DNA of 64,000 nucleotides from a virus (IMGVR_UViG_3300007346_000025:1-64000); one strand, 5' to 3'. Counted from the stretch's first letter, positions 3-30,400 are shown. Notes: generated from the letters alone by a model not told the origin. Program-made: numbers and translations.

Positions 3-1004
3 ACTGATAATCCAGTAGCAGGAATTGGTTGTTCTGCAAGTTATGATAATGAAAACAGTATTCTTTATTTTTCTAAAAAAGATTATAAATTAAAAACTGA
101 ATATTCACAATCAATAAGTTATGATAGCAGTATAGATACTTTTATTCATACAGATGAATTTGGATTAAGAACTCCATTTAAAATAGATAGTGATTTTGCA
201 AAAACATATTTTGATGATGCATCTTGGACAGTAAGTTATGATCCTAAGATGCAATACTTTATAAGTTTCCATGATTGGCATCCTGGTTTATACATCCCAA
301 GTAAAGGTAATTTTTCTACTGTACTAAAAAATGGTATCTGGAAACATGGGTATGCATGCAATGACTATTGTAATTTCTATGGTGTACAATATCCATTTGA
401 AATTGAATTACCTTTTATTACCGGTCAAACTGTAACAACATTAAAAGGTGTTGAATACTATTTAGAATGTTATAGAAGAGATGCAAATTATTGTGTGGAT
501 CAATTCCACGTATTAGATTATAACTTTGATAAAGCTGTTGTATATAATTCAGAACAGGTATCTGGATATCTTAATTTAAATATCTTTCCTAAAAACAATG
601 TAACTCTTAGTCAAACTTATCCTAAACTAAATACATCTAACTTACAATCATTTGATATTCTATTTAGTAAAGAAGAGAATAAGTATAGATTTAATCAATT
701 CTGGGATATTACAAAAAATCGTGGAGAATTTCCTATTGGATCAACTTATCCACCAACAGGTCCAGTTATTCCAGGAACTACAGTATTGCAAGGTAACTAT
801 GCTGAAAATAGAATATGGATTACAGAACCTAATGGTTATATTAAACTATTAAATTCAAATGCTGTAGATTATAATAAATCTAATTTACAACGTAAGAAGT
901 TTAGACATTATATTAATTTTTTAACTTTATCTAAAGAAGATTCTAGAAATACTAATATGATTCTAAAAATTATTAATACTAAAAATCAATATTCTCCTAG
1001 ATAA
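3..1004 (+). CDS. Tail stabilization protein (P22 gp10-like, crAss-like), 5'-truncated
   Basis: Frame is open from nt 3 (TDNPVAGIGC...DASWTVSYDPK) into the 249..1004 ORF. The WTVSYDP..FISFHDW.P segment resembles crAss-like stabilization protein C-termini, and the gene precedes the cargo genes. Confidence 0.65.
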   Translation, partial: TDNPVAGIGCSASYDNENSILYFSKKDYKLKTEYSQSISYDSSIDTFIHTDEFGLRTPFKIDSDFAKTYFDDASWTVSYDPKMQYFISFHDWHPGLYIPSKGNFSTVLKNGIWKHGYACNDYCNFYGVQYPFEIELPFITGQTVTTLKGVEYYLECYRRDANYCVDQFHVLDYNFDKAVVYNSEQVSGYLNLNIFPKNNVTLSQTYPKLNTSNLQSFDILFSKEENKYRFNQFWDITKNRGEFPIGSTYPPTGPVIPGTTVLQGNYAENRIWITEPNGYIKLLNSNAVDYNKSNLQRKKFRHYINFLTLSKEDSRNTNMILKIINTKNQYSPR

Positions 1005-4000
1005 TGAAAAAAGTTAAAGTAGGAAAGTCTAAGATTCATGGTAATGGTTTATTTGCAAATGAACCAATTAAAAGAGGTGATGTAATTGAGTTGGTACATA
1101 CCATTAGAGAGATTGAGCCAGGTATGATGAAAACAACCCCAACTCTTTTAGGAAGAAATTATAATCACTCTGATGAACCAAATGCATTAAATGTAATTGA
1201 TGGTAATAATAGATATCTTATTGCTTTAAAAGAAATAGAAAAAGGTGGAGAAATTACTACTAACTATAGAAATAATCCAGATCTTGAGCAACCAGATTCA
1301 TTTACTACTAATGATAACTATATTTCATTTGACTATGATGATACTTTAACTACACCAGAGGGATTTAAGTTAGCTCAGCAAATGAATAAGGATGGAAATA
1401 ATCTTTATGTTATTACAGCAAGAGATAAGATTACTCCTGAAATGATTGAAAGAGCAGAAGCTGCAGGTATTCCAAAAGAAAATATTATTGCTGCTGGATC
1501 TGATAAAGAAAAAGTTAGAATCATTAAAGAAAATAATATTAGTAAACATATAGACAACAAAGACTCTGTAATAAAAGAATTGGGAGATAAAGGAGAATTA
1601 TTTTCTCCAGATGCTTATCCGGATTTAAAAGCAGACTTTGTTGAAATGGATTTATCTGAAGAAGATCTAAATAAACTTAAAGAAGGTGGTTTTATTATTG
1701 ATAAATATCCTGGTAAATATAAAAGTTCATATGCAGTTGGTGGTGCAACATCTCCAAAAAATCTAGATCCAGAGCATATGAAAAAATATAAAGAGGGTCT
1801 TAAAATTAATGAGAACTCTATCAAAGCTGGATATAAAAATGGTCTATGGTATCCTCACCATAGTGTAGAAGGTGGTGCTGATACAATTGGATATGGACAT
1901 AAACTTTCTGGATCTAATAATAGTAAGTACTATAAAGGTTTATCAACGGCACAAGTAGAAGATCTACTTGACTCAGATATATTAAAGCATCAAGCTATTG
2001 CTAAAAGTATAGTAGATAAAAAATATGGTGAAGGAACATTTGATAGTCTTCCACAAGATTCACAAATGCTTTTAGTAGACTATGCATATAATGGTGTTCT
2101 AAATCAGTTTCCTACATTTACAAAAGGTGTAGTTGAAGGTGATAAAAACACTATGCTTAAAGAATATAAAAGATACAGTGGAAGTAACCCATTAACTCAA
2201 AGAAATACTTGGACAGAAAATGTAATAAACACTGGAGATTTTAGTATGCCAGTTAATGCACAAGCAAGTGAAGAAAATAGTGGTGGAATACAATCAGCAG
2301 TAAAAAATTATGTTTCTAGTATAGATCTAAATGAATATGCTAAAGGTGGAGATGTATGTCCTGAAGGATATATGAAAGATGAAAATGGTGATTGCATTAG
2401 GATTCAAGATATTCCTGATATAACTGTGACAAATACATATGATGTTAATGGTGGAAAATGGAAAATTAATAATGGTGTTTGGACACAGTTATCAAATGAT
2501 GCTAAAGTAACAAATGCTCACACAAGAGATAGACAATCTGCATATAAGAAAGGTAAATCAGAAAGAGCATTTAGAAATATAACACCTCAAGGATATGGAG
2601 ATCTTCTAAAAAATTTAGAGAGATATAAAAGGTATACAAATAATTTGGGTAGAGATAAAAATGAATTACGTTGGGATATTTCTCCTGAAGGAAAACAAAT
2701 GTATTACAGTATTCCTCGTAGAGATGATATGTTTAGTCTATATTTAGGTTTACCACAGCAAAATAATTCTTTTGTTCCACAATTAATGTATAGACCTACA
2801 AATGAAAAAGATCCAAGTAGTTTATATTATAAGCCTAATTATTGGACAGAAAAAGAAAAACAAGCATTGCTAGATCAGTATTTGCAAATGTCTAAAAATA
2901 ATTATAATAAGAATATTTATAATGAAAGAGATGCAGTATTAAAACCTATTGTAGATAGTTTAAAAAAAGCTGGTGTTCCTGATTGGGATCCACAATACGG
3001 AACAGTATTTGACAATCCTTTAGGAGATTTTACTGTTACAAAAGGTAAAGATGAGTATGGTAATTATATATCTATTTATGATAAAATAGATTTTAATCCC
3101 TTTCAAACAGGTGCAGGTGCATCTATAAATCCTGCAGGTGCAGCATTACAAGCTTATATGCAATTACAGGGTCATAATGTTAATGCAGATACTGAAGCTT
3201 CTTCTCTTTTTGGTGCAGGTAAACCTTATGAAATTTATGATAGAATTTATTATGATCCAAAAACAAAAAAAGTTATAAAGCAAAATAATTTTGATAAAGG
3301 TGGGGAACGTAGAAAGAAAAAATATAAAGAAACGGAGATTCCAGAAGAAGATAAAACCCCATCTAATTACACTGGTGATAAAAAGACTAGAATACAAAAA
3401 GGATATTATGATCCTGAAAATGAGTCTTCTTATATGCTAGAGACACCAGATTTTAGAGTTTATGATCCTAGTTTATGGGGAAAGTATGGTAGAAAGTATG
3501 ATGAATCTCATGACAAACAAGCTTATATTGATAGAAAAAAAAGACAGTACCTTGCATTACATCCTATATTAAATAGAAAGGCTGGTCTTAGTATGGATTA
3601 CTTTCCAGAGAAAGTAGAACAAAACTTTGCAGGTAATTATGATTATGATAAAAATACTCAATTAGTTAAAGATGTTGCTAAAGAAGAAGGTTGGAACCCA
3701 CATAGAAGAGAGTCTTATGTAGATGATCTTACTAAACAAGGACAAAGAATAGTGGGTAATTCTAAATTCGGAAATAAACTTCAAGCAGATTATTGGGCTA
3801 GAAGTTTAGCAGGTTTACAAGAACTTGGAAACTTTCTTATAAAAACAACATTACCTGGAGAACAAGGTGATGTTTTAAAATATAAAATACCAGGACTTAC
3901 AAAAAAAGAACAAAAAGATATTGCAGACTCTAATTTTGGAGCACTTGAGTCTCTTGCTTTTGCAGATATTCCTGGTGCTGTTATTGCAAATGCTGCAAAA

Positions 4001-6478
4001 AATAGAGGACTATCATATGGTTCAGACTATAAAGAATTACCAGGAGTTTTGTCAGGACAAAAAATGCCTAATGTATCAGATCTTGATGCTACAGCACTAA
4101 ATCCATTTACTTGGGCAGGATTAGCAGATCTACCACAAGCAGCTATAAGTTTAGGAAGAGGAGCTGCAAAATTAAGTAAGTCTGGATATACTTTAGGAAA
4201 AGATGCATATGATCTTGGTAAAGATATTTATAGTGCAGGTAGAGGAGATAATTTATATTTTGCTACTTCAGCGGAAGCTCAACTTGCCAGAGACTTAAAA
4301 GAAGCAGGATTATTAGGAGAAAAGGTTGATCCAAAAATATTTGGTAAATATCCTAATCTAGCTCAAACTGCCACTAAGAGAAAGTTAAAAGATTATAATA
4401 CTACATTCAGAGCTGTTGATCCAAATATTGAAAAAGCAGCAACAGAAGATTTAATTGGAATGTATGAAGCAGGTGTTAACATTGAAGATCCTGTAGATGT
4501 TGCAAAATATATGAGCACTCACGTTCCATCTGAACAATACTTCTGGAGAGTAGGTGCAGAAAGTTTAGGTAGCAACCAAGATGCTTTATACACTGCAAAG
4601 TTTCCAAATATAGAAGATGCTTCAACTGGTCTACATAAGTACGGTACATATGTTACTGAAGTAAGACCTCCTATGGATTTTTCAGAAGGAACACCAAGAG
4701 ATTGGTTTAATCAATACTACAGGGATAAGCCTTTTGCTTATGAAAAAGGAATTGAGGAAGGTGCAGGTTGGACCCGGAAACAAGGACCTATTCAGTCAGG
4801 TACTGTTGTTGCACCAGAATTTGCACAATACTGGCCTTATGTTGGAAATAAAGGAGAAAAGGTATTAGAAGCAGTTAGAACTGTACCAACAAAAATGAGT
4901 GCAGAAGCACAAAGACTAAAAGCACTTAGAGACAAAATAGCTGCAAAAAATCTAGAAGATGTTAATGACATTGTTGGTAAAAGGGTAAATGGTGTTACAG
5001 AGTATGTTAGTTCATCTAAAAAATTACCAGGTGTTTCTAATGGAACATTTGCTTATAGAAATCCAACTCCTAGTAAGGTAAGTCCTGCAATTGAATTTAC
5101 AGGACCTATGAAACATTCTTTTGAGGATACTCCTGAAGTATTAACAGCTTTAAGACAAAGAGGTAGTTATTGGGATAATACAGGAATTCCTGGAAAAGAT
5201 CTCTTACATTCAGATATGATTACTTATCATGGAACTTATTCGGGTAGACCTATAGTAGAAGTTAAAATGCCTGATGGTTCTTCTGAGATGTTTTATAAAT
5301 CTTCTGGATGGGCAGGGAAACAAGGATCTGGTGCAAATAATACAACAGAAGGTATGTGGCAAGTATTTGGGGGGCATGCTGATACTCCAAAAACATCTAA
5401 TTGGTTTATTAAAGATTCCGGCTATAAAGATTACTATGGTAGTAAAACTTTTGCTAATATGGCTGAAAATCTGGATAATGCATTAATGCAAAAGTTAAAT
5501 ATTAAATCAGTAGATGAGCTAGATGATGCATTTAATTTTCAAAACAGATTTGGTAATACAGATAGTTTTATACCATCAGATCCAGGTAGGGAATTTGCCT
5601 ATAAAAATATAACTTCTAATAAAGTGCGTCCTACAAATACAGGATTAACTAATGCTGATATAGAAAGAGAGGCTGCTAAAAACATTGAATGGATTACTTC
5701 TCCTGAATATGCAAAAAGAAGAGCTGCTAATACAGGGGAAACTTCAGAAGAAATCCAAAGGAGTATAAATCAGATTATTAAAGATGCTGGTAATGCAAAA
5801 TTTGATTTAAATTCTGATCCACGGATAGCAGACCTCTATGAACGGTCCGGGGTTATGAAAAAGAAAAGATTGTTCCGTCCTGCAAAAGTAGAAGTTTCTG
5901 CTAGTGCTGAACAACCTTTACAAACATTAAGTCATGAAACAAAGCATTTATATTCTCCAGCAGTACATGATAGTAAGAGAGCCTATGATAATTACCCTAC
6001 AATAGGGGATGTCAATGATCCTTATTTTGGTTCAGGTCCTGAACAACAAGTAAGACATTTAAATGCTAGAGAACAAATTTTAGCAGAAAATAATCTTCCA
6101 ATAGATGCTCAACTATCTGAAGAACAAGTAAGAGAATTTGTAGATAAATGGGCAAAAAGAATGAATAAAAATGATTCTAATGTTAAATATCAAGACTATG
6201 ATCAGTTATGGTCAGATGAAGCTGGTAGAATCCAAAAAGAAATGTTAAAAGCAAAATATAATACTGATGATTTAAGTTATATAGGCACTTTACCCTATAT
6301 GCAAAAACTTAGGTTTATGAGTGATTATAAAGATTTACTCACTAGATCTATTACTAATACTTTGAATAAAGCATGGATGACAATTCCTGTAGCTGGAGGA
6401 CTTGAATTAATGAATTCTGAAAGTGTTACACAAAGACATGGTGGATCAATTCATAAACTTAGTAAGTTTATTAATTAA
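1004..6478 (+). CDS. 1824-aa polyvalent virion-associated protein: SET, HAD-like, lysozyme-like, unknown domains and C-terminal zincin
   Basis: SET motifs IHGNGLFA, NHSDEPN, EITTNY; HAD motif FDYDDTL plus ITAR and HIDN; muramidase-like E...DTIGYGHKL; HETKH at 5933-5947. TAATG-coupled to the upstream gene. Confidence 0.75.
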   Translation: MKKVKVGKSKIHGNGLFANEPIKRGDVIELVHTIREIEPGMMKTTPTLLGRNYNHSDEPNALNVIDGNNRYLIALKEIEKGGEITTNYRNNPDLEQPDSFTTNDNYISFDYDDTLTTPEGFKLAQQMNKDGNNLYVITARDKITPEMIERAEAAGIPKENIIAAGSDKEKVRIIKENNISKHIDNKDSVIKELGDKGELFSPDAYPDLKADFVEMDLSEEDLNKLKEGGFIIDKYPGKYKSSYAVGGATSPKNLDPEHMKKYKEGLKINENSIKAGYKNGLWYPHHSVEGGADTIGYGHKLSGSNNSKYYKGLSTAQVEDLLDSDILKHQAIAKSIVDKKYGEGTFDSLPQDSQMLLVDYAYNGVLNQFPTFTKGVVEGDKNTMLKEYKRYSGSNPLTQRNTWTENVINTGDFSMPVNAQASEENSGGIQSAVKNYVSSIDLNEYAKGGDVCPEGYMKDENGDCIRIQDIPDITVTNTYDVNGGKWKINNGVWTQLSNDAKVTNAHTRDRQSAYKKGKSERAFRNITPQGYGDLLKNLERYKRYTNNLGRDKNELRWDISPEGKQMYYSIPRRDDMFSLYLGLPQQNNSFVPQLMYRPTNEKDPSSLYYKPNYWTEKEKQALLDQYLQMSKNNYNKNIYNERDAVLKPIVDSLKKAGVPDWDPQYGTVFDNPLGDFTVTKGKDEYGNYISIYDKIDFNPFQTGAGASINPAGAALQAYMQLQGHNVNADTEASSLFGAGKPYEIYDRIYYDPKTKKVIKQNNFDKGGERRKKKYKETEIPEEDKTPSNYTGDKKTRIQKGYYDPENESSYMLETPDFRVYDPSLWGKYGRKYDESHDKQAYIDRKKRQYLALHPILNRKAGLSMDYFPEKVEQNFAGNYDYDKNTQLVKDVAKEEGWNPHRRESYVDDLTKQGQRIVGNSKFGNKLQADYWARSLAGLQELGNFLIKTTLPGEQGDVLKYKIPGLTKKEQKDIADSNFGALESLAFADIPGAVIANAAKNRGLSYGSDYKELPGVLSGQKMPNVSDLDATALNPFTWAGLADLPQAAISLGRGAAKLSKSGYTLGKDAYDLGKDIYSAGRGDNLYFATSAEAQLARDLKEAGLLGEKVDPKIFGKYPNLAQTATKRKLKDYNTTFRAVDPNIEKAATEDLIGMYEAGVNIEDPVDVAKYMSTHVPSEQYFWRVGAESLGSNQDALYTAKFPNIEDASTGLHKYGTYVTEVRPPMDFSEGTPRDWFNQYYRDKPFAYEKGIEEGAGWTRKQGPIQSGTVVAPEFAQYWPYVGNKGEKVLEAVRTVPTKMSAEAQRLKALRDKIAAKNLEDVNDIVGKRVNGVTEYVSSSKKLPGVSNGTFAYRNPTPSKVSPAIEFTGPMKHSFEDTPEVLTALRQRGSYWDNTGIPGKDLLHSDMITYHGTYSGRPIVEVKMPDGSSEMFYKSSGWAGKQGSGANNTTEGMWQVFGGHADTPKTSNWFIKDSGYKDYYGSKTFANMAENLDNALMQKLNIKSVDELDDAFNFQNRFGNTDSFIPSDPGREFAYKNITSNKVRPTNTGLTNADIEREAAKNIEWITSPEYAKRRAANTGETSEEIQRSINQIIKDAGNAKFDLNSDPRIADLYERSGVMKKKRLFRPAKVEVSASAEQPLQTLSHETKHLYSPAVHDSKRAYDNYPTIGDVNDPYFGSGPEQQVRHLNAREQILAENNLPIDAQLSEEQVREFVDKWAKRMNKNDSNVKYQDYDQLWSDEAGRIQKEMLKAKYNTDDLSYIGTLPYMQKLRFMSDYKDLLTRSITNTLNKAWMTIPVAGGLELMNSESVTQRHGGSIHKLSKFIN
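5048..5638 (+). repeat. Degenerate 45-bp direct repeat pair (5048-5092 and 5594-5638)
   Basis: FAYRNPTPSKVSPAI vs FAYKNITSNKVRPTN; 34/45 nt identical by manual alignment. Confidence 0.75.
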
Positions 6479-6500
6479 AATGAAATTTAGTATATTTAAT
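6454..6500 (+). promoter_or_regulatory. Palindrome TAAACTT-AGT-AAGTTTA plus TTTAGTATATTTA promoter-like motif
   Basis: Palindrome at 6454-6470; G of GTATATT at 6490; ATG at 6515. The same architecture occurs at 12231-12275. Confidence 0.65.
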
Positions 6501-6514
6501 ATATATCCTGTGTA

Positions 6515-9500
6515 ATGAATAAAAAAGTAAGAATATATAATCCTCAGTATGCTCAAGGTGGTATTACTCAACAAGATATACAAAAATATCTAATGATGCA
6601 ACAACAGCAACAACCACAAATTACTGAAAGCAATTTAGTTGACTTAATTTATAATGAGTTAACTTTATTAGGAGATAAAGGTGGTTATGTTGATTCAGGG
6701 TACATTGATGACTTAGCTGAAAAAATAACAGCAATGTACAATCTTGATAATGACTATGTTATGAACTTAGTTACTGAAGTGTACTCAACTATTGCACCTT
6801 CAGAGTTGAAATATCAAAAAGATGTTATCAAAGAAAATTCTCCAAATCCAGAATTAGAAATGCTTGATCAAGAAAATGATGAAGAAAATCTTGAAGAAAA
6901 TATTTCAACTTATGATGATTATTATGGAGATGATATGGAAATGAAATATGGAGGAGTGTCTAGAAAAAAATTTATAAAAAAGTTTATTAAAAAAGCTCAA
7001 GAGGGTTTAGAACAAGAGTCTAATACATCTATAATAGGTAATAATGATATTCCAGATGGTAGAAATGCTTTAGTAAAAGGATTTGAATCTAGTGTTAAAA
7101 ATTCTGTAGTAGAAGCTGTTGCTAAAAATGAATTTGATAAAATGAAACAGCAAAGTTCTTATTTTACAAATGGTGGGTTTTATAATCCTACTAGTTCAGG
7201 TGATGAAGAAGCATATGCTCATCATTTAAATTTAATGGCACAAGCTAATAAAGATATTTTTAATCAACCTGGAATGACTACTGCTAGAGATGGTAGAGAG
7301 CAACGTAGAGCTAATAGGGATCAAAGAAGAGTTGGAAGAGATGTACAAAGAGTACTTAATAATCTTCCCGGGATGTATCCTGGAGGATTTAATGTATATA
7401 CAATGCCTGGACAAATTGTTCCAAATATGAGTCAATTAAGTCAAGGTATGCCGCCATTTACTATTGAAGGTGAGAGAAATATTTTTGGTGGTTTAAAAAG
7501 TTATAGAGCTACATTTGAAGGAGGTTTACCTGTAAACTTTATGGCAGGTATGATGATGCCTAGAACAATGGGAAGAGGAATGAATATGTTATCGTCAATG
7601 TATGGTTATCCATCATCATTCTATAATCAACGAAGTTATACTTATCCTGGTGAAATAATATACGAAGAAGTAAATAAAGAAGCTCTTAAAGAAGTAGATA
7701 AAAGTACACCAAATAATTCTTCAACAGAAGTAAAAGAATCTACAATACCTAGTCCATCTACAACTCCAGTAGTTCCTGGTATTAAGAAAACTAAAAAAAC
7801 TACAGTCCCACAGATAATCCCACAGACAACTCCACCTTATAAACCTGAGATAGATAGAGCAAAGTTTAAAGATGCTCTAGAACCAGATCCAGGAGAAAAT
7901 TATAAAGAGTGGAGAACAGAAGATGGTGGAGTAGGAGTTTCTTATGAAGCTCCCTATAAAACAGGGATGTTCGGTACAACAAAACCAGCAAGATATCAGA
8001 TTATATATAAACCTGATGGCAGTATAGATAAGAAAAAAAGTTTTGTTGCAGTTGTACAGTCAGAAGATTATGGAGGTGTAGTATATGTTCCATGGGATAA
8101 ACAAGGAACATTTTGGTATGATGATGGAGGAATAGTGATGAATACTAATACAAATCCTTTTGGTGAATTACAAAAGTATGTTTATGGTGGTTATGATCCA
8201 TCTGTTGCAGAACTTGACGGAACTAATCTTGTAGATCCATCAGATCCATATACAAGACAATTTTCTAATGGTGGAACAAAAGAAGAATATCAAAAGTATA
8301 TTGATTGGTATAATGAAGATGCTCCAGAAGAAGGAATGCGTAGAGCAGCTCCTCAATCATATGAAGAATGGATGGCAGAAAATCATCCAGAAATTAAACC
8401 TAAGCAAAATATTATTCCAAATTATAATCCTTATAATGCAGCTTTAGCAGCACAATATATGAATCAAGCAATGAACTTAAATAGAGAAATGCCTATGGGA
8501 ACATTAGCAAGATCTATTAATCCCTTCTCAATAAATAGAAGATTAGTTCAAAAAGGTTTGCCTATGATTGCAGGAACTAATATTCCATTTACTGGAGTAT
8601 TTGGTCCTGACACTAGAATATCTGAAATATATACTGAACCAAGAAGATTTGGTAAAGATGCCATACATTATAAATTTATGATTCCTGGTCAAGAAGGTCC
8701 TATGTTAGGAATGGATTGGCAACAACAAGTTCAACAGCAACAACAACAAAATCAACAACAGCAAGAAGGAGTTGTGGATGATTATTCTACTAGAACTAAG
8801 AAAAGAGGTCTTGAGGATGAAAGTCAAATTGCTATAAGACAAGGTGAAGGAGATGTAAGAAGAAGTACAAGAAGAGCAATGCGTCAAGATCCTGATGCTT
8901 TTTATGAAGGAGAACCATTAGAAGGTATGGTTACTCCTACATCTATGGAAGACTACATGGCAAAAATAAATGCTGATAATGCATTTAAAGTATTAGAAGA
9001 AAGGTTAAAAGAGAAAAATATAAAAGAGAAAAATGTAAAACCAAAATCTGAATATAAATCTAAAAGAGCAGCACTCAATGCTGCACTAAAGGGGGAATCA
9101 AGAAAAGACGTTAAAAATTTAGGTAAAGACTTTATTGGTTATAACCAAATACATAAAAATGTTGAAGAGCAAAAAAGAGTTTTTGATGAAATGCGTAAAG
9201 ATAAAACTCCAGAAGGTTTAGAAAAAACTCTTAGATATGGTACTGATATCCTTACACCTAATATGGAGAAAGTTTTAGCTAGAGGAAAATCTATAGAAGA
9301 TTATCAAGCTAATACTTCAAAAAAAGATAAAAGAAAAAATTTCAGAGAATTTAAAAAAGAAGCTAGAAATAGAGCAGAGGGTGGTTTTGTTCCAGACTAT
9401 ATGGCTTATGGTGGTACACCTATGTATCCTGATGGTGGATTTGTATATAACAATCCTGTAGATAATAGAGATAATACTGTAATGGGTGAAGACTTCTTTA

Positions 9501-9955
9501 CTGTAAATACAAATAATAATAATATTCCAGATTATCTTGAATGGCAATCAACACCTCAACAAGAAGTTGATGTAACATATCAGCAAAAAAATAAACTTAA
9601 TTTTCAACCTAGAGGTTTAATGCCTTTCCTTGGTAATATTGCAAGGAATACTAGAAATGCATTAGATGCTAGTATGATAGATAAGTTTAATACTCAAAAT
9701 ATGATGTCTTCTAATGGTAGAGTAGCTCCAACAGAAATGCTTTCTCAAGGTAGATATGATATTAATACTGGTAGAGAAATTGATAAAGGTTTTGAAGGTA
9801 TAATTGGAGCTGGACTTACTCAACAAACTTACTCTAAATTTGGTGGACAATTAAACTATGAAGAAGGTGGGGAATATGACCTTACAGAAGAAGAAATCCA
9901 AGCACTCATTGATGCCGGTGTAGATATTACTTTATTAGAAGATTATGAAGATTAG
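6515..9955 (+). CDS. 1146-aa low-complexity (Q/M/G/P-rich) putative virion cargo protein with many xxxGG motifs
   Basis: Long ORF in the structural block; poly-Q tracts; about 10 GG motifs such as YAQGG, FTNGG, YDDGG, FSNGG, YPDGG, YEEGG. Confidence 0.6.
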   Translation: MNKKVRIYNPQYAQGGITQQDIQKYLMMQQQQQPQITESNLVDLIYNELTLLGDKGGYVDSGYIDDLAEKITAMYNLDNDYVMNLVTEVYSTIAPSELKYQKDVIKENSPNPELEMLDQENDEENLEENISTYDDYYGDDMEMKYGGVSRKKFIKKFIKKAQEGLEQESNTSIIGNNDIPDGRNALVKGFESSVKNSVVEAVAKNEFDKMKQQSSYFTNGGFYNPTSSGDEEAYAHHLNLMAQANKDIFNQPGMTTARDGREQRRANRDQRRVGRDVQRVLNNLPGMYPGGFNVYTMPGQIVPNMSQLSQGMPPFTIEGERNIFGGLKSYRATFEGGLPVNFMAGMMMPRTMGRGMNMLSSMYGYPSSFYNQRSYTYPGEIIYEEVNKEALKEVDKSTPNNSSTEVKESTIPSPSTTPVVPGIKKTKKTTVPQIIPQTTPPYKPEIDRAKFKDALEPDPGENYKEWRTEDGGVGVSYEAPYKTGMFGTTKPARYQIIYKPDGSIDKKKSFVAVVQSEDYGGVVYVPWDKQGTFWYDDGGIVMNTNTNPFGELQKYVYGGYDPSVAELDGTNLVDPSDPYTRQFSNGGTKEEYQKYIDWYNEDAPEEGMRRAAPQSYEEWMAENHPEIKPKQNIIPNYNPYNAALAAQYMNQAMNLNREMPMGTLARSINPFSINRRLVQKGLPMIAGTNIPFTGVFGPDTRISEIYTEPRRFGKDAIHYKFMIPGQEGPMLGMDWQQQVQQQQQQNQQQQEGVVDDYSTRTKKRGLEDESQIAIRQGEGDVRRSTRRAMRQDPDAFYEGEPLEGMVTPTSMEDYMAKINADNAFKVLEERLKEKNIKEKNVKPKSEYKSKRAALNAALKGESRKDVKNLGKDFIGYNQIHKNVEEQKRVFDEMRKDKTPEGLEKTLRYGTDILTPNMEKVLARGKSIEDYQANTSKKDKRKNFREFKKEARNRAEGGFVPDYMAYGGTPMYPDGGFVYNNPVDNRDNTVMGEDFFTVNTNNNNIPDYLEWQSTPQQEVDVTYQQKNKLNFQPRGLMPFLGNIARNTRNALDASMIDKFNTQNMMSSNGRVAPTEMLSQGRYDINTGREIDKGFEGIIGAGLTQQTYSKFGGQLNYEEGGEYDLTEEEIQALIDAGVDITLLEDYED

Positions 9956-12233
9956 AATAAATAAATTACCTAAAAAACTTACTAAAGCATTAGTAGGAAA
10001 ACAAGTACAAGGATCTCTTGCCATTACTCCATCAGCATGGGGTGGTGGAGATTATAATGATAGTCTTGCTAATAAACAAACTCAAGTTAGAGATACTTTA
10101 CAACCAGTACCAAGAAATCTTGCTAATTTAGAAGCAGAAAGAGGAGAGTATGCATATGGTGGAATCTCTGGTGATAATATTCCAGATAACTTTAAAATAG
10201 GTGGTAAGAGACATTCTAAAGGTGGTACACCATTAGATCTTCCGGAAGGGTCATTTATTTTTTCTGACACAGCATCAATGAAGATTAAAGATCCATCTGT
10301 ATTAAAGATGTTTGATCTTAAACCAAAAAAAGGTGGATATACTCCTGCAGACATTGCAAAAAAGTATGATATTAATTCATACAAAAAATTGCTTTATGAT
10401 CCAAATACAGATGAGTTAACAAGAAAAACTGCAACTATCATGATTAAAAATTATATCATGAAGTTAGGATATCTTTCTATAGTTCAAGAAGCAATGAAAG
10501 GATTTCCACAAGGAATGCCTGAAGTAGCAAAACCTGTATTGGAAACTATGGGTTATTCTATGGAGCAATTTGTTCCTGAACCTGTACAACAAGGTCAACA
10601 AGAAATTATGGCTCAAGAGCAATCTGAAAATGAAATGCCAACAGAAATGCCAAATGGAGAACCTATTGCATCAATGGAAACAATGTATGGTGATGATGCT
10701 AATGCTCAACAAATACCAGTAAACCCTTCTATGCCAATGGCAGAGTATGGAATGACTCTTGGTGGTTATGATATGCCTATGTATCCTAATGGTGGTATGA
10801 TAATTCAACCATATGGAAGAGCAAATACACCTGCAGGAAATGAAACACCCACAGCTAAATCAAATACATGGAGTTCTCGTCAGCAACCACTACCTGAATT
10901 TTTAGCAGGATGGGAACAACATGTTCCAGGAATTTCTCAAATGACAGAAGGTCAAGCTCAAAAAGCAATGTATGAGTGGGCTCTTGAAAATAACCCAAGT
11001 GTTATTAGAGATATGTGGAAGGAATGGGGATTAACTGCTGCAGGAAGAGATATACCTAGTCTTGAAAGATTAACAATACCCGGTGATGATTATAGACATA
11101 GTGGTCATACAGGAGTATTTGATGATGCTACATTAGAAGATATTGAAAACTTAAGAGCTTTACAAGAAGGATTTGTTGATAACAAATTTGGTGCAAGACA
11201 GTTGAGTTATGATTATACACCACCTGAAAAGAAAGGATGCCCTTGTGAGGATGGAACTTACTCTGAAGAATGCTGTCCAGATACTCAGAAAAAGGGCTGT
11301 CCTTGTGAAGATGGTACATATTCTGAAGAATGTTGTCCAGATACTAGAAAGAAAAAATGTAAATGTGTAGATCCACAAACTGGTGTAGAAACAATAACAG
11401 AAATAGCTGAAGGTGAAGAGTGTAACTGTCCAGGAGGATCTTTTGAGCAACAAGGATTTCAAGATACTCCTGTATATTCAGACATAGCTTCTAGAAATAT
11501 TCTTACACAAATGACAATGGATCCAACTGTACCAAGAAGTAGTAGTGTGATGCCTAGTTATACTGAAACACCGGGTGCATATAAAGATTATTTAGCAGAT
11601 ATACAAAATATTGGTAGAGGACAATCTGCTATGATGGATATGATTCAAGGTACAGCAGGTAATGAAGGTAGTGCTTTTGCAAAAGCAATGACAACAGCAG
11701 CTCAATCTCAAGCTGCAAATCAAGCTGCTGTTAATGCAACACAAACAGATAACATTAATGCTGCTAGACAAGTTGGTCAGTATAATGCTCAAACTAAAGC
11801 TCTTAATAATGCTCAAAGAGCTGAGATTATGAACCAACAACTTCTTGCAACACAAGGAGAAAAACTTCAAGAAGTAATAAACCGTAATCAACTAGATCAG
11901 AATAAACAGGCAGCACTTCAAGATGCTGAAAGTGAGTTACAAGGTAGACTACTATCTAATTTTACAAATCAGCAATATGGTACAACATATAGAAGAGGAG
12001 TTCCATATTTTAAACAAGGTAAACCAAATGTTCCTGAAAAATCAACTGATGTTAATGAAAGAGTTAAACAGCTTCAAGCAATATATGGTAAAGATGCTAA
12101 AATAGGAGACTTACTTCAAATTATTAAAATGGAGCAGCAGCAGCAGCAGCCAAAACTTGTTAAAAAAGGTGGGCAAGCAACAGGTGGAGGATATATATTA
12201 GGTGAAAATATTTTTCCATTCATGTTTTACTAA
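9945..12233 (+). CDS. 762-aa crAss-like virion/cargo protein with Cys-rich tandem repeat
   Basis: NLEAERGE...GKRHSKGGTPLDLPEGSFIFSD N-terminal block resembles a conserved crAss-like structural gene; A/Q-rich helical C-terminus. Confidence 0.6.
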   Translation: MKIRINKLPKKLTKALVGKQVQGSLAITPSAWGGGDYNDSLANKQTQVRDTLQPVPRNLANLEAERGEYAYGGISGDNIPDNFKIGGKRHSKGGTPLDLPEGSFIFSDTASMKIKDPSVLKMFDLKPKKGGYTPADIAKKYDINSYKKLLYDPNTDELTRKTATIMIKNYIMKLGYLSIVQEAMKGFPQGMPEVAKPVLETMGYSMEQFVPEPVQQGQQEIMAQEQSENEMPTEMPNGEPIASMETMYGDDANAQQIPVNPSMPMAEYGMTLGGYDMPMYPNGGMIIQPYGRANTPAGNETPTAKSNTWSSRQQPLPEFLAGWEQHVPGISQMTEGQAQKAMYEWALENNPSVIRDMWKEWGLTAAGRDIPSLERLTIPGDDYRHSGHTGVFDDATLEDIENLRALQEGFVDNKFGARQLSYDYTPPEKKGCPCEDGTYSEECCPDTQKKGCPCEDGTYSEECCPDTRKKKCKCVDPQTGVETITEIAEGEECNCPGGSFEQQGFQDTPVYSDIASRNILTQMTMDPTVPRSSSVMPSYTETPGAYKDYLADIQNIGRGQSAMMDMIQGTAGNEGSAFAKAMTTAAQSQAANQAAVNATQTDNINAARQVGQYNAQTKALNNAQRAEIMNQQLLATQGEKLQEVINRNQLDQNKQAALQDAESELQGRLLSNFTNQQYGTTYRRGVPYFKQGKPNVPEKSTDVNERVKQLQAIYGKDAKIGDLLQIIKMEQQQQQPKLVKKGGQATGGGYILGENIFPFMFY
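11229..11348 (+). repeat. 2 x 60-bp tandem repeat encoding KKGCPCEDGTYSEECCPDT(Q/R)
   Basis: Directly visible: 19 identical residues with 9 synonymous nucleotide differences. Confidence 0.95.
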
Positions 12234-21490: not shown

Positions 21491-24400
21491 ATGAAAATTA
21501 CATGTGCATTAAGCCAAAATCAAATTAAGAATCTATACAGTAATGTGTATGGTAACATGCTCAGCTCATTAAAAGAAGATACTCCTTTTGATGTTAATAC
21601 ATACATGGCAAGTGTATTTGATAAGATTAGCCAGAAGTCTAGTCCAGAAAATGCTGCTAAGTTTGTACAACAAATACCTAAAATGGTTTCTGTTGCTGCT
21701 AACCGTGAAGATTTATTTGACCTAGAAATTGACCTCAATGCAGTTAGAAAACTTGTAAAAGAGTTTGCTAATGAAGATACGGGAATTGAATCTGTAATGA
21801 AAAGATTTGCTCCTAAAAAATCTTCAAGTACTAAAAAAGAGTTAACAAATAAAAAAGCTAATGAAGCTTTTGATCCTACACAAACAGAGGATAAACCTGC
21901 AGAAACAAGACCATTATCATTAAAACCTTTCTCAATCTTTAATACAAGTTATCAAGAGTTTGAGGCAATTGATCCTAAAGCAAAAGAAGAAGGATACCAA
22001 GAAGTAGCAGATGAAACTAAAGAATTTATATATACTGCACTTGGTAAAATTGCTGCAGCAAATACTGATCTTGATAATGCTATGGATACCGCACAGTATC
22101 AAGGTAAAGAACTTAGACTTAAACCTATAGTTTTAGCTTCAGCTCCTGTTGAAATGCTTGATAAGTATTCTACAAGAATTAAAAATGTATCTACATTTTT
22201 TAGAAACTCTAATAAGAAAAACAATAGAGTAATTCAAGCCACTGAAATTATCTTAATGGCAATTTCAGATGAACAAGGTCAACTACTCTATTTTGATAAT
22301 GAAGGTAATATTGTAGATACTCCAGAACAAGGAAGAGTTGTTTATCAATTTTTAAGAAATGTAATTCAAGAGAATGGTAAATATGTAGATGTAAATATCT
22401 ATGGTTATTCTAATCAAATTGCATCACCTGAAGAAATATCTAAAGCTACTGGTGTACCAGTAGAAGAAGTTGCTAAAAATCAACAAGCTGACTTTAAAGC
22501 ATTGTATGATTATAAAAAATCTATCTTAGACGGTAATATAGCACTAGCACCATTAACAGGAATTAGTGAAGGAGTTTCTCCTAAACAATCTAAACAAATT
22601 ATAACATTAGCTAATATAAATCAATTTCCTTTTGGTAGTGATTCAATATTTAAATCTATTAAACCAGTTAAGACACCAAGAGGTATATTTAAAGATGGGG
22701 ATACTACAATTACAATTGAAGGTACTGAATATAAAATTGATAGACCAAATGCTACAGATGACATTATTAATAAAGTAGCTGATGTATTTAGTAATCCTAA
22801 TATATCTAATAAACAAAAATACAATTTCTATTTACAGTTTTTTTCAAAAAAAGCATCTCCATATACAAGAAGACATAATGTAGAATATGCTGAATCAACA
22901 GATGAATTAATTTTTACTTATTCTCCCACTACTTATGCTGAAAAATATTCTAAGTTTCAACCAATTGATAATTTAAATACTCCTGAAGCTAAAGAATTAA
23001 TTGTTGATATTTTAAAAAATGCTTCTGGTACAAAAGGAAAGTACTTTTCTGCTAAGATGAATTATGATGAGACTAATTTATCTAAAAATGGTTTTCTAGA
23101 TTATAACTTAGAAACAAGAACAGTAGATGAAGAATTTAGTAATTATATTGAATTACTAAAAACATTACCAAGAACTACTATATACTTTAGTGAATCTAGT
23201 GATCCTAAGAAGTTCAATGCATATATGAACTTTAGAATCCCAACTGAATTTATTAAAAATGTAGAAAAAGCTAAAGAAAATCCTGCTTTAGTAGAACCTT
23301 CTCCAACAAGAAAACAAAAAAATATTCTTGTTGATTATTTAAAAGGTCAACCTAAAATTACTCAGAATCTTAAATTAAATGTATCTGCTACCACTAAAAA
23401 GGGAATGGAAAATATATCTAATGAAGATTCTGAAATAAAAAATATAGATGAATCTAAATTTAAGAGACTAACTAATACTAATGAAAGTGAAAATGGATTT
23501 AGTGTTGAAGATGGTATTCTAAGAATTAGAGTTGGTGGATTAGATGTGTTTGGAAGAACTGGTGGTGCTACTCAAATAAGTTTAAAAGTACCTGAAGGAT
23601 TTAATCCAAATCTTTTTGCTGAAAAACTTAAGGACATAAGTCATGAAGGAGGAATTACAACACCAGAAGCTGTAAATCAAGTTATTACTGATATTAAAAA
23701 TGCTCTTAATCCAAATGTAACTACTGATATATCAAAGCAAGGTGTTGTAAATACTTCTGCTGCAGGCAATGAATTTGGAACTTTTAATATTACTTCTCCA
23801 GTAACAGGAGAATCACTTGTAGTTGCATTAGATAAAAAGTTTTTTAAAGAAGCTCCTTTATTAACTGTTGGTACACCTGTTTCATTAGCATTAACAACTT
23901 CTGAAACAGAAGATATGTATATCCCAGATATTATTGAAGTTAGAAATTCTGAAGGAAAAACTATTGGTCGTGTAATGGAAACAGACTATGGTAAAAAAGA
24001 AACTCCATTAGATAATTATTATAGAGAGCTTAAGAAACAAAGAAGTAAAACTATTGAGGAAAAAATTGAAGAAAGTACTAATACAAAAGGTACTGCTAAT
24101 CCAAAAGATGGTTTAGCTGGTAAGTTTTTCTTAAGAAGTGGACATTTGCAATATGATGCAACACCTGAGCAGGTTAAAAAAGCAGATAGTTGGTGGAATA
24201 CTAGTGATTTAAATAAGTATTTATCTTTTGAACAAGGAGTAGCAATTGTTAACTCAGATGCATTTGCAAGATTTATTGCTTATGGTTCTATTCTGAATGG
24301 TAAGTTAGGGATGATACAAATTGCAAATAAAGGTTCAATGGTAGATATATACCATGAAGCTTGGCATGGTTTCTCTCAGTTATTCTTAACACCTGAAGAA

Positions 24401-27400: not shown

Positions 27401-30400
27401 GATTATACAAATAAGCTTAAAGAAACAATAAAGGATCCTGCTAAACTTACTGAAGCTGTAGAATATAGAGTTAAGAAGGACTTAGATGCCTACAAGAAAA
27501 TGGTAGAAGGTGATGGTCAAGGGTGGGTTACTTTTGATACTTATAGAATTCTTAAGAATCTAGAGAATGCTTGGTCATATGAGCAAGAAGAATTATTTAC
27601 TAAAATAACTGATGGAGAATTTGTCTCTCCTACAGAAATTATTCAAATGTTCCCAGTATATAAAATACAAAACTTTGGCCACTTAGCTAATACAGGATTG
27701 CCTGTAAATGCTATGCATAAGTTTGCACTTGCTCCATTAATACCATCTATGATTGAAGGATCAGATCTTCAGTCTTTACATGAACAAATGATGGCAAATA
27801 ACATTCAGTATGTTACATTTCAGTCTGGTTCAAAAGTTGGTTCTGTTACTTCAGAAAAAGATTCTAAAGGTAAAGCAGCAGCAGACATCATTTATAAAGA
27901 TGATGAAATGAAAAATCTCAATAGAGATATTAATTTTACTCCAAACACTATTTACGTAGATTATCTTAAAAATGTTACAAATGTAAATAGCTCATATAAA
28001 GAAAAAGCAACATTCTCCACACAGTTAAGAAAATTAATCTTGGGGTCAATGTATCGTGAAGGTAAAATCATTAATCCCAATAATGAAGCAACTGTAAAAG
28101 AATATGAAAAAACTGTTGATGAGTACACTAAACTTTTAAAATTTGAGTTACTTAATGAAATTGGGTATGAAGAAGTAGACGGTAAGTATATTGGTAATCT
28201 TACAAACTTTTTAGATTTAGTTCAAAGAGAGTTAGGTAGAAGAAAATTACCAGAACACCATATTGAATTTGTTGGTCAAAATCTAGATAGCACATTAAAG
28301 ACTGATTTATCATTACACTTAAGAGCTGATGATATAGAAAAAATTCTAGTTAGTCTTATTGAAAAAAGATTTATTAAACAAAAAGTAAAAGGTGAAGCTT
28401 TAGTACAAGTATCCAGTGCTATGACAAATGGAATCTGGTCCACACCAACATTTAAAAAAGCAACAGCTGAAGAAATTAGAAAGTATATTGGCACTAATAA
28501 CTTACCTTTCTATAATCCAAGTAAAGATGGTACTTCAGCAATGAAAGTAGCAATTGCTTTACAGGGAGACTTTATAAAATTATTGAGAAGAAAAGATGTT
28601 GCAGTAATTGACACTGTTGATGGAAAAAGAACTCTTAATAAAAAAGCTAGTCTTGCTAAGTTAAATCAACTTATAAAAGATGAAGCATGGTTAGAAAATA
28701 ATAGAGATTTAATTAGAATGTCTGCTGTACGTATTCCAGTACAGGGTCTTAACTCTATGGAGTTCATGGAAGTCTATGAATTCTTAGATCCTGCAGCAAG
28801 TAATATTATTATTACACCAACAGAAATTGTTGCTAAATCAGGATCTGACTTTGACGTTGATAAACTCATCACTTTTATGCCTAATATAGATAATAGAGGT
28901 ATGTTTATTAAATCTGGTATGTCTGAAGAACAATTCCAAGATTTTGTAAAAAGAAATAAAAACAATAAAGATAGAGTAAAAGAAACAATTAAAACTCAAA
29001 AATCTGCTCTTGAAAATAAACTTATTACAACTATTAATAATATTCTTGCATTACCAGATAACTATGCAAATCTTGTAAGGCCTAACTCTACATATCTACT
29101 TAAAGATATTGCAGATAAACTTCAAGATTTTGTATCTGAGTATGATAGATTTAAAAATAAACTTGGTCAGGAATATGTAACAATAACTGATAAAGAAGAT
29201 AAAAAAGTAAAAGTTATTAGTCCTACAAGAACACTTGAAACTGGATACAATCTTCATAAACATGATGTAAACTTAACTGGTAAGAAAGTATTAGGTATTA
29301 CAGCTATTGAGAATTCATTAAATCCTATTCTTAATTCTTTGGGTGCAGCAATGCCAAAAACATATAAGCATTCTTATTATGATAATGCTATAAAGAAATG
29401 GGTAGAAACTGATACAACTTATAATACCAACTTGTATTTGCCACATAGAAAAATGGCAGATGGTAGAATTTCTCTTTCACATACTGAAAGCTTAGATGGA
29501 GATTCAATTTCTGATGTTCTATCACAAATGATGAATGGTCTAGTTGACGTAGAAAAAGATGCATGGATATTCTTTATACAGGCTAATTTAGAAATTGCTC
29601 CTACTTTATTGTATTTAATTAAAGCAGGTGTACCAAAAGAACATGCAATCATGTTTGTTTCTAATCCCCTTGTTAGAGATTATGCTAAAAATAAAAGGCT
29701 TTACAATAGTGCTTATTCTGAATTATCAGGTAGAAAACTTGATGATAAATCTTATGCTCAATACCAAGCTGCTACAGATGTAATCATTAGTCAACTTCCA
29801 ACACTTATTGAAGATCAGTTATCTAATATTAGAGATACTGAAACTATATATGTAAGAACAGGACGTTTTAATCCATACTTACAAGAAATGGAGTATGAAG
29901 ATATTCCAATGACTAAGTTGCAACTAATTCAAAAAGTAAAAGACAAAAATTTTGCTGAGTCATTTATTAATGTGCGTAAGGATAGTAAGAAAGGTGGGAT
30001 TATATTTAATAAACCATCTATAAGTAATAAAAAGTATTACTTAGACACTAAGTTCTATACTCAAGCATATATAAATAAAAATAAAGAGTTTGACTTAGAT
30101 CTTATGAAAAGAGTTATTCTTGATCCAAAGTCTTCAAAATATAGAGGAGCAGCAATGGCTATGTTTATGCACTTTATAGAAATTGAAAAACAAATCCGTG
30201 GTCTCCAAACATTAAAAAGACTTGCTAATCCAGATACTAGAACTTCTAAAACATTAGAAGAAGTAATTAGAAGAGGTGTATCACTTGAAGAACTTAAAGA
30301 ACTTTCTAAAGTAGATCCTGAGTTAGTAAGAAAATTAGTTGAAGAATCAATTCTTGGAAGCTTCTTTGATAATAAACTCATTGGAGAATTAGTAAAACCA

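Follow-up and report, generated by a model that had tools for sequence, protein, structure and literature searches.

Crassviruses pack megadaltons of protein cargo into their particles, and how this cargo is selected, stored and threaded out is described as an open question in the main text of PMC10172136 (Bayfield et al. 2023). In Bacteroides phage crAss001, the cargo genes gp45 (C1) and gp46 (C2) come next after the muzzle gene and precede the giant genes of the virion RNA polymerase (RNAP). The crAss001 cargo products were found in virions by mass spectrometry, and the capsid-side and tail-side parts of gp45 are treated as one protein, ejected from the N- to the C-terminus (PMC10172136, main text). 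The same order of muzzle, cargo proteins and RNAP giants occurs in the stretch of DNA analysed here (the window), which is the first 64 kb, positions 1 to 64,000, of a single viral contig of 72,792 bp (IMGVR_UViG_3300007346_000025). Three open reading frames (ORFs) of this window, B, C and D, encode candidate cargo proteins in which Gly-Gly (GG) pairs recur; these pairs, their flanks and a mini-domain bracketed by them are the subject of the present work.

The placement of B, C and D relies on the truncated ORF A ahead of them, which matches phrog_37948 (E 5.8e-18) and, by tblastn, the csAssE-Sib product annotated 'Muzzle protein' (26.5% identity over 90% of the query, E 5e-17), with further matches in Flavobacterium and Cellulophaga phages. 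From this muzzle match and the shared gene order it follows that the cargo genes of this uncultured crAss-like phage begin with B, C and D, situated as crassvirus cargo blocks are, 3′ of the muzzle gene and 5′ of the virion RNAP giants. By analogy, their products are probably carried in the phage particle and injected; for B, we infer packaging into the virion and delivery to the host from its synteny with the crAss001 cargo genes. The contig has no terminal repeat and is a fragment, with an estimated completeness of ~61%. DNA and protein searches of a phage collection with B and C gave no match; no close relative is present there.

The cargo protein gp45 of crAss001 is itself rich in GG (21 pairs against 13.2 expected, P 0.011), with sites of the AYGG/AFGG type and a double-GG C-terminus. 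Two segments of it are resolved, 214-245 and 425-552 (PMC10172136, main text), and each starts at a GG site of this kind or shortly behind it. The differences are nevertheless several. The pattern [YFMW]xxGG, with an aromatic residue or Met three residues ahead of GG, is not enriched in gp45 (3 against 1.4), C and D have no significant sequence or profile similarity to it, and the strand-helix-strand mini-domain described below is absent from crAss001. Unlike B, gp45 and gp46 have no recognised enzyme modules in their record annotation.

The modular make-up of B recalls the polyvalent proteins of Iyer et al. 2017 (PMC5512222): it joins a SET domain, a lysozyme and a module with an HExxH motif, and its relatives carry ART-PolyVal, amidase, SLT, VanY and YkuD domains, a polyvalent-like mix of unrelated effectors. 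Polyvalent proteins are thought to be delivered together with the DNA, and their metallopeptidase domains have been proposed to process them (PMC5512222, main text). Neither 'glycine' nor 'linker' nor crAss occurs in that main text, taken without its supplements, and GG seams and a terminal mini-domain lie outside what it describes. More generally, no published description of these seams or of the Pfam family DUF7210 was found in the literature searched, which consisted of main texts without supplements, the crAss001 mass-spectrometry tables and gp45 coverage being among the latter.

As in adenovirus and African swine fever virus (ASFV), the Gly-Gly pair is recurrent in virion proteins, or here in candidate virion proteins. 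The adenovirus protease and ASFV pS273R carry out GG-specific processing of viral proteins, and the adenovirus-type site has Met, Ile or Leu two residues before GG. In the present proteins the hydrophobic residue stands one position further from the GG. With regard to their ends, two other systems provide a comparison. The T4 capsid-targeting sequence stands at the N-terminus and is cut off by the prohead protease, and the encapsulin cargo-loading peptide is a shorter, unstructured motif. What they would have in common with the mini-domain is a short conserved terminal element on otherwise unrelated proteins destined for the inside of an HK97-type shell, a likeness in the way of working only.

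The GG pairs of B, C and D do not form one motif but punctuate three conserved elements. The first is a GG-bracketed mini-domain of ~30 residues with a strand-helix-strand arrangement: aromatic-x-x-GG leads into a short strand, an acidic helix (..ELT.EEI..Y..) follows, and the hydrophobic strand comes after a second GG or GY. The mini-domain is common to the C-termini of B-like, pre-C and C-like proteins, and is also found between swappable enzyme modules. The second element consists of tandem linkers rich in Tyr and Met, such as MAYGG / YPDGG, for which disorder is predicted, and the third of GG beta-turns within small folded domains. A preliminary description of this locus had proposed a single recurrent GG element punctuating the cargo proteins. 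Punctuation is indeed what is seen, conserved in relatives and absent from the RNAP giants; the unity of the element is not.

The mini-domain is widely distributed. In the local set it is represented by 80 unique copies, 62 C-terminal and 18 internal, and a profile built from 38 copies retrieved 1264 cluster representatives (E <= 0.001) among 1.84 billion proteins. The best 150 of these 1264 representatives contain 2-4 copies each; in 127 of the 150 a copy lies within 12 residues of the C-terminus, and 125 of their 227 internal copies have a further GG within 14 residues, typically YQDGG or YPDGG. Domains accompanying the mini-domain include SET, lysozyme, amidase, SLT, VanY, LysM and ART-PolyVal, with a Pfam match in 14 of the 38 carriers scanned. 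Two Pfam families come near the mini-domain itself: one copy matches DUF7210 (PF23843) at E 3.3e-5 and 23.7 bits, below the curated cut-off of 27, and SutA-RBD (PF20661) matches 8 of 38 copies over profile positions 11-26 of 35, the best at E 1.9e-4 and 21.1 bits, below the cut-off of 29.3. Internal copies with no following GG often show a second conserved seam, S-[VI]-P-x-L-[TN] or P-K-A-Q-x-G; residues 160-165 of C, KKAQEG, may be compared with the latter type. Prediction of a paired mini-domain complex, run without controls, scored 0.00, which is no evidence either way.

Enrichment was assessed with 2000 whole-protein shuffles preserving composition, and with a local variant in which blocks of 30 or 60 residues were shuffled 3000 times each; [YFMW]xxGG was scored as a sharper pattern beside GG itself. 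The three proteins hold 40 GG pairs, 11 in B, 17 in C and 12 in D. For C, 8.0 pairs are expected and 0/2000 shuffles reach 17; [YFMW]xxGG occurs 10 times against 1.1 expected, again with 0/2000 shuffles. The figures for D are 12 against 6.2 (P 0.0125) and 4 against 0.7 (P 0.006). B behaves differently, with 11 GG against 11.5 (P 0.61) and 3 [YFMW]xxGG against 1.4 (P 0.16). Local-block shuffles agree, C and D being significant and B not, so the excess in C and D is not a by-product of patches rich in Gly and Tyr. Per 1000 residues, GG and [YFMW]xxGG amount to 6.0 and 1.6 in B, 14.8 and 8.7 in C, and 15.8 and 5.3 in D, against 2.26 and 0.21 in the remainder of the contig (61 ORFs, 19,054 residues). 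As B is at chance against its shuffles, its raw GG excess is explained by glycine content, and the pattern in B is a matter of position, not count. In C, an aromatic residue or Met lies within three residues ahead of GG in 14 of 17 cases, and a hydrophobic residue follows in 13 of 17.

All motifs named in the preliminary description are present where it placed them: four in B, both of those in D, and all 11 in C (YAQGG, MKYGG, FTNGG, YDDGG, YVYGG, FSNGG, RAEGG, MAYGG, YPDGG, SKFGG and YEEGG). Each instance is thus real, but the list was a selection from 11, 17 and 12 pairs under a formula, xxxGG, that specifies just GG; measured against background, enrichment is borne out in C and D and not in B. 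The rarity it attributed to the downstream giants is confirmed: E, F, G and H have 6, 5, 6 and 1 GG against 4.5, 4.9, 8.0 and 4.0 expected, and 0, 2, 0 and 0 [YFMW]xxGG. An explanation at the DNA level was also considered and rejected on comparison of the nucleotide flanks of the 40 pairs, which share no common sequence. The first Gly codon of the pairs is GGT in 31 of 40, against 54% GGT among all Gly codons of B-D, a bias that may reflect avoidance of GGAGG.

Conservation extends through both families. The [YFMW]xxGG excess is kept in 35/35 database homologues of C (P <= 0.038 each), six of which share 28-56% identity with it over 9-34% of the query. Across these 35 homologues, 16 of the 17 GG pairs of C are each retained by the majority of aligned rows, four of them without exception; GDKGG is private (1/32 rows). 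In the D family, with 17 members at 26-37% identity, 7 of 12 pairs are conserved, including YPNGG and VKKGG, the two pointed out previously, and YAYGG, FKIGG and NCPGG are private to this phage (1-2 of 16-17 rows).

The pattern is replicated in related loci. A first scan of viral contigs with the C sequence alone found nothing; an alignment-based profile scan worked and yielded 34 loci, 20 of which were analysed, the other 14 being mostly duplicates or short. In these 20 loci, [YFMW]xxGG is enriched at P < 0.05 in 19/20 C-like and 14/18 D-like ORFs, as compared with 1/18 E-like and 0/17 F-like ORFs, and it is often enriched in the variable ORFs immediately 5′ of the C-like ones. Flavobacterium phage FPSV-S29, a relative in culture, has no such enrichment and no mini-domain, which makes it unsuitable as an experimental stand-in.

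ORF B is a mosaic. Its modules are a SET domain at residues 13-88 (Pfam E 3.9e-8), the mini-domain at 205-236, a lysozyme at 290-392, other modules that can be swapped, and at the C-terminus one that contains HETKH (1644). The lysozyme match (E 0.0019) is below the Pfam cut-off and clearer in relatives (1.6e-8). Homologues cover just 9-29% of the length, the exception being a shorter, 100%-identical form with 86% coverage, and delimit the blocks 1-236, 240-414/462, 464-767, 793-1066, 1362-1524 and 1523-1823. The conserved N-terminal block ends at the mini-domain 205-236, which aligns in register with 37 other copies, and homologues of the lysozyme module begin at B 240-243 with YAVGG, YATGG, FATGG, FKKGG or YAAGG. 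That the lysozyme is bracketed by YAVGG and YAKGG, as noted earlier, is true of the positions, the Pfam match falling between GG pairs at 246 and 448. At the end of B, a double-GG stretch conserved in the homologues P0038 and P0039 looks by eye like a degenerate terminal mini-domain, to which the hidden Markov model (HMM) gave no score. Over the whole B family, a GG lies within 10 residues of 140 of 485 junction clusters, against 71.9 expected. Three of the four motifs named in B stand at block edges, and only 2 of the 12 junction clusters of B itself have a GG nearby; the assignment of GG to domain borders is thus partly right. Seams at other joints of the family read YPDGG, KQMGG and FAKGG. 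The SET methyltransferase module (window 1040-1267), which opens the first cargo protein, recurs N-terminally in many B relatives and mini-domain carriers.

ORF C, with its 17 pairs, is the richest in the motif among the cargo proteins. The three GG pairs of its tandem linker are conserved in 27/27, 29/32 and 29/29 occupied rows. In the AlphaFold2 model, the C-terminal mini-domain forms a strand (1120-1124), a helix (1125-1133) and a second strand (1137-1140). GG 471 and 520 are turns between predicted strands of a confident beta domain; the others mostly lie next to predicted helices, as GG 15, 56, 146 and 586 do directly ahead of them, or sit in low-confidence stretches. Foldseek comparison of the mostly low-confidence C model with the PDB gave no match at E <= 0.001, and Pfam scans of the C and D families returned scattered weak matches only. 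Poly-glutamine runs of C and D (6599-6613, 8732-8764 and 12135-12149) adjoin GG-rich linkers and, together with stretches rich in Tyr, Gly and Met, give these proteins a low-complexity, prion-like composition.

An N-terminal folded domain opens ORF D; the protein also has linkers with GG, a repeat rich in Cys, a long helix and, at the C-terminus, a double GG. Within the confident fold, GG 72, 86 and 93 are beta-turns between strands, H90-x-x-G93-G94 being invariant, and GG 130 lies directly ahead of a predicted helix. The GG pairs of the linker are conserved in 14/15 and 16/17 rows. Residues 43-188 are possibly akin to the domain of crAss001 cargo protein 1 that is bound to the portal. In a Foldseek search of the PDB, 7qog_M was the top match, a weak one (E 0.52); chain M of 7qog is gp45, whose segment is 425-552 according to the paper and was aligned over the chain range 433-549. 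Comparison with this chain (VIA) gave Z 4.9 and a root-mean-square deviation of 4.2 Å for 96 of 126 residues at 20% identity. By BLASTP, D matches a 946-aa structural protein of csAssE-Sib (E 1e-7) around the invariant H-x-x-GG. None of the 17 members of the D family or the 31 of the C family matched the Pfam family crAss_CARG1 at E <= 1; P0072, a relative of B, does carry it (E 4.6e-13).

Two further features of D deserve mention. Residues 425-480 (window 11217-11384) contain a tandem Cys-rich repeat, two near-identical units with CPC and CC. It could form a knot held together by metal or disulfides, and Cys 472 and 493 hardly vary within the family. Moreover, C (window 6515-6604), D (9945-10010) and the csAssE-Sib 946-aa protein (28019-30859 in the csAssE-Sib sequence) begin with a similar Lys-rich strand, M-x-K-[KR]-[VI]-R-I..., followed by GG at residue 15 in C and the csAssE-Sib protein, the first GG of D being at 33. 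This shared strand may be an N-terminal signal.

How these elements might work is best approached from their positions. The analysis establishes the pattern, that it is conserved, syntenic and widespread, and that it goes with module borders and C-termini; from this we infer that the pairs are hinges and terminators in a modular architecture, that a shared terminal handle completes it, and that the chains are not cleaved; this account has, in our estimation, about an even chance of being correct. GG pairs would end strands and helices and serve as hinges, so that each module could fold, unfold and thread through portal and tail independently of the others. The terminal mini-domain would give different cargo proteins a shared handle for their recognition in loading or in anchoring in the particle, and the cargo chains would remain uncut. 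Hinges and a terminal handle fit proteins that need to be loaded into a particle and threaded through. The docking or targeting tag suggested in the preliminary description agrees with the C-terminal copy in most of the best-scoring mini-domain carriers, the fit being circumstantial and no partner having been found.

Several observations weigh against hinges and a handle on uncut chains. In B, the overall GG count is at chance, only 2/12 BLAST-defined junction clusters have a GG within 10 residues, and the block borders in the last 1000 residues are unpunctuated. The C model has a predicted local distance difference test score (pLDDT) below 50 in 813 of 1146 residues and was derived from 31 sequences, with which disorder and poor prediction cannot be separated; its mini-domain block reaches only moderate confidence (pLDDT 59-77). 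The uncut precedent, gp45, comes from a distant phage without the mini-domain, and its connection with D is tenuous: the Z of 4.9 is tied with that of an unrelated helical chain, profile comparison of the C and D families with gp45 gave no signal, BLASTP of D against gp45 found nothing, and a six-frame search of the contig with crAss_CARG1 (PF25725) was negative at E <= 10. No capsid, portal or ring genes are present on the contig, and no binding partner of the mini-domain was identified. Cleavage sites would also look like short conserved peptides at the joints of swappable modules, and candidate zincin-like motifs are present in B, G and H, so that cleavage is possible.

A first alternative is that the GG pairs are joints and nothing more, i.e. 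neutral turns and linkers kept for domain shuffling, without any role in loading, docking or cleavage. The mosaic nature of B, whose homologues share blocks, the coincidence of GG pairs with turns and helix ends in the models, and the lack of an identified partner are all in keeping with it. It accounts less well for conservation that reaches beyond GG to the upstream aromatic residue or Met, the downstream hydrophobic residue and the whole acidic helix, or for the location of the mini-domain at the extreme C-terminus in 127 of the best 150 of 1264 representatives, where a neutral linker need not be. The nucleotide flanks without common sequence argue in the same direction, although the first codon does favour GGT (31/40). 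We hold this alternative to be somewhat unlikely.

A second alternative, which we judge unlikely, treats the seams as processing sites cut by a packed zincin-like protease of the phage or by a host enzyme, freeing the SET, lysozyme and other effectors before packaging, in the head or after injection. The excess of GG at joints of the B family (140/485 against 71.9) would be expected of such sites. The mini-domain is terminal in free-standing proteins and internal in fused ones, and a cut after an internal copy would recreate the free-standing form. An HExxH motif is conserved in the last module of B (3/3 homologues) and in G, where HE[AS]WH with a downstream acidic stretch occurs in 4/4 orthologues, from the 4/5 complete relatives that matched. 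The literature proposes self-processing of polyvalent proteins (PMC5512222, main text) and cleavage of crAss-like RNAP polyproteins (10.1101/2020.03.07.982082). Yet G, the fused protease-RNAP giant that this literature expects to be cleaved, has 0 [YFMW]xxGG, and its 6 GG are fewer than the 8.0 expected. Many pairs of the cargo proteins are 8-10 residues apart or form beta-turns inside confidently folded domains, a bulky hydrophobic residue follows GG at 13 of 17 C sites, and [MIL]xGG, the adenovirus-type register, occurs once in C and never in B or D. In crAss001 gp45, GG 434 and 447 (and 427 by the range given in the paper) remain intact within a stretch modelled as one compact domain, and neither 'cleav' nor 'protease' occurs in the main text of PMC10172136.

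The idea in the preliminary description that a maturation protease cuts after GG therefore finds no direct support: no GG-specific family in the relatives searched, a different register, and GG inside folds. The own genome being incomplete, a protease was sought in five relatives at least 91% complete, where Peptidase_C48, Peptidase_C39, Peptidase_S78 and CLP_protease are all absent (0/5). This bears on three types of system. For a clan-CE protease, the negative concerns Peptidase_C48, Peptidase_C5 (adenain) not having been searched for; for a prohead protease, it concerns Peptidase_S78 and CLP_protease, with S77 and S49 not searched for. A double-glycine leader system is at odds with the missing C39 and with GG pairs that are spread along proteins of 762-1824 residues.

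A composite of handle and cleavage is conceivable as well and, in our view, quite unlikely: in a large clade of crAss-like phages the mini-domain would be a code for virion loading and ejection, its terminal copy marking a protein for encapsidation, and a co-packaged zincin-like protease would cut at the seams behind internal copies, so that a single polyvalent precursor would give several injected effectors, each with a tag of its own. Chance, finally, according to which GG is simply frequent in glycine-rich proteins and the instances were picked by eye, can claim the overall GG count of B, the looseness of xxxGG and the private instances in C and D, but is ruled out for C and D by whole-protein and local-block shuffles, the 35 homologues, conservation of sites down to ~26% identity and replication in 20 loci with absence from E- and F-like ORFs, and is as a general explanation extremely improbable.

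The region 3′ of D is occupied by the giant ORFs E to H, after which a replication module lies on the opposite strand (see Table 1 for coordinates). The virion RNA polymerases of crAss-like phages are described as having a DFDxD catalytic motif, and phi14:2 gp65 provides a parallel for the zincin-like motif of G (10.1101/2020.03.07.982082). Near its C-terminus, G contains a NADAR domain (residues 3387-3498, window 31649-31984, Pfam E 7.2e-13), which, if injected, could be a counter-defence enzyme against ADP-ribosylation. In H, HEYAH at residue 196 (33197-33211) and a LysM domain at 1648-1685 (37553-37666, Pfam 2.6e-5) suggest a peptidoglycan-binding giant with a possible metallopeptidase. Sequence searches of the PDB with C, F and G gave nothing useful.

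Table 1. Features of the cargo block and downstream giants, in window coordinates (i-E, independent E-value).
Feature	Position	Strand	Description
ORF A	3..1004	+	5′ cut by contig end; C-terminal part of crassvirus muzzle-protein homologue; synteny anchor
ORF B	1004..6478	+	1824 aa
Internal mini-domain copy in B	1616..1711	+	Residues 205-236; contains LKEGG; HMM i-E 0.037
YAVGG seam, start of B lysozyme module	1730..1744	+	Placed by homologue alignments
YAKGG seam after B lysozyme module	2336..2350	+	Module-2 alignments end at 408-462; module 3 begins at 464-475
FDKGG seam, end of B module 3	3290..3304	+	P0061 and P0037 alignments end at 767 and 768, exactly at GG
B C-terminal stretch	6386..6475	+	Residues 1795-1824; two GG pairs, PVAGG and QRHGG (QRHGG at nt 6431)
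ORF C	6515..9955	+	1146 aa
C tandem Tyr/Met-rich GG linkers	9371..9445	+	Residues 953-977; three GG pairs, spacing 8-10 residues; pLDDT <50
C C-terminal mini-domain	9827..9952	+	Residues 1105-1146, after SKFGG and YEEGG; HMM i-E 3.7e-14
ORF D	9945..12233	+	762 aa
D folded domain	10071..10508	+	Residues 43-188; AlphaFold2 block pLDDT 74-91 over 51-200
D linker, MTLGG and YPNGG	10740..10802	+	Residues 266-286; resembles C tandem linker; pLDDT <50
D double-GG C-terminus (VKKGG ... GGGY)	12156..12230	+	Conserved in 15/17 and 17/17 rows
Very large ORFs 3′ of D		+	E 1053 aa, F 2011 aa, G 3696 aa, H 1957 aa
HEAWH zincin-like motif, ORF G	24353..24367	+	Candidate co-packaged protease
DFDVD, ORF G	28847..28861	+	Matches DFDxD catalytic motif of crAss-like virion RNA polymerases

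An element that ends cargo proteins and separates their modules, in more than 1000 protein clusters, offers a concrete and testable handle on the selection, storage and ejection of cargo. In addition, the mini-domain would make it possible to spot injected effectors in uncultured phages by their sequence only.

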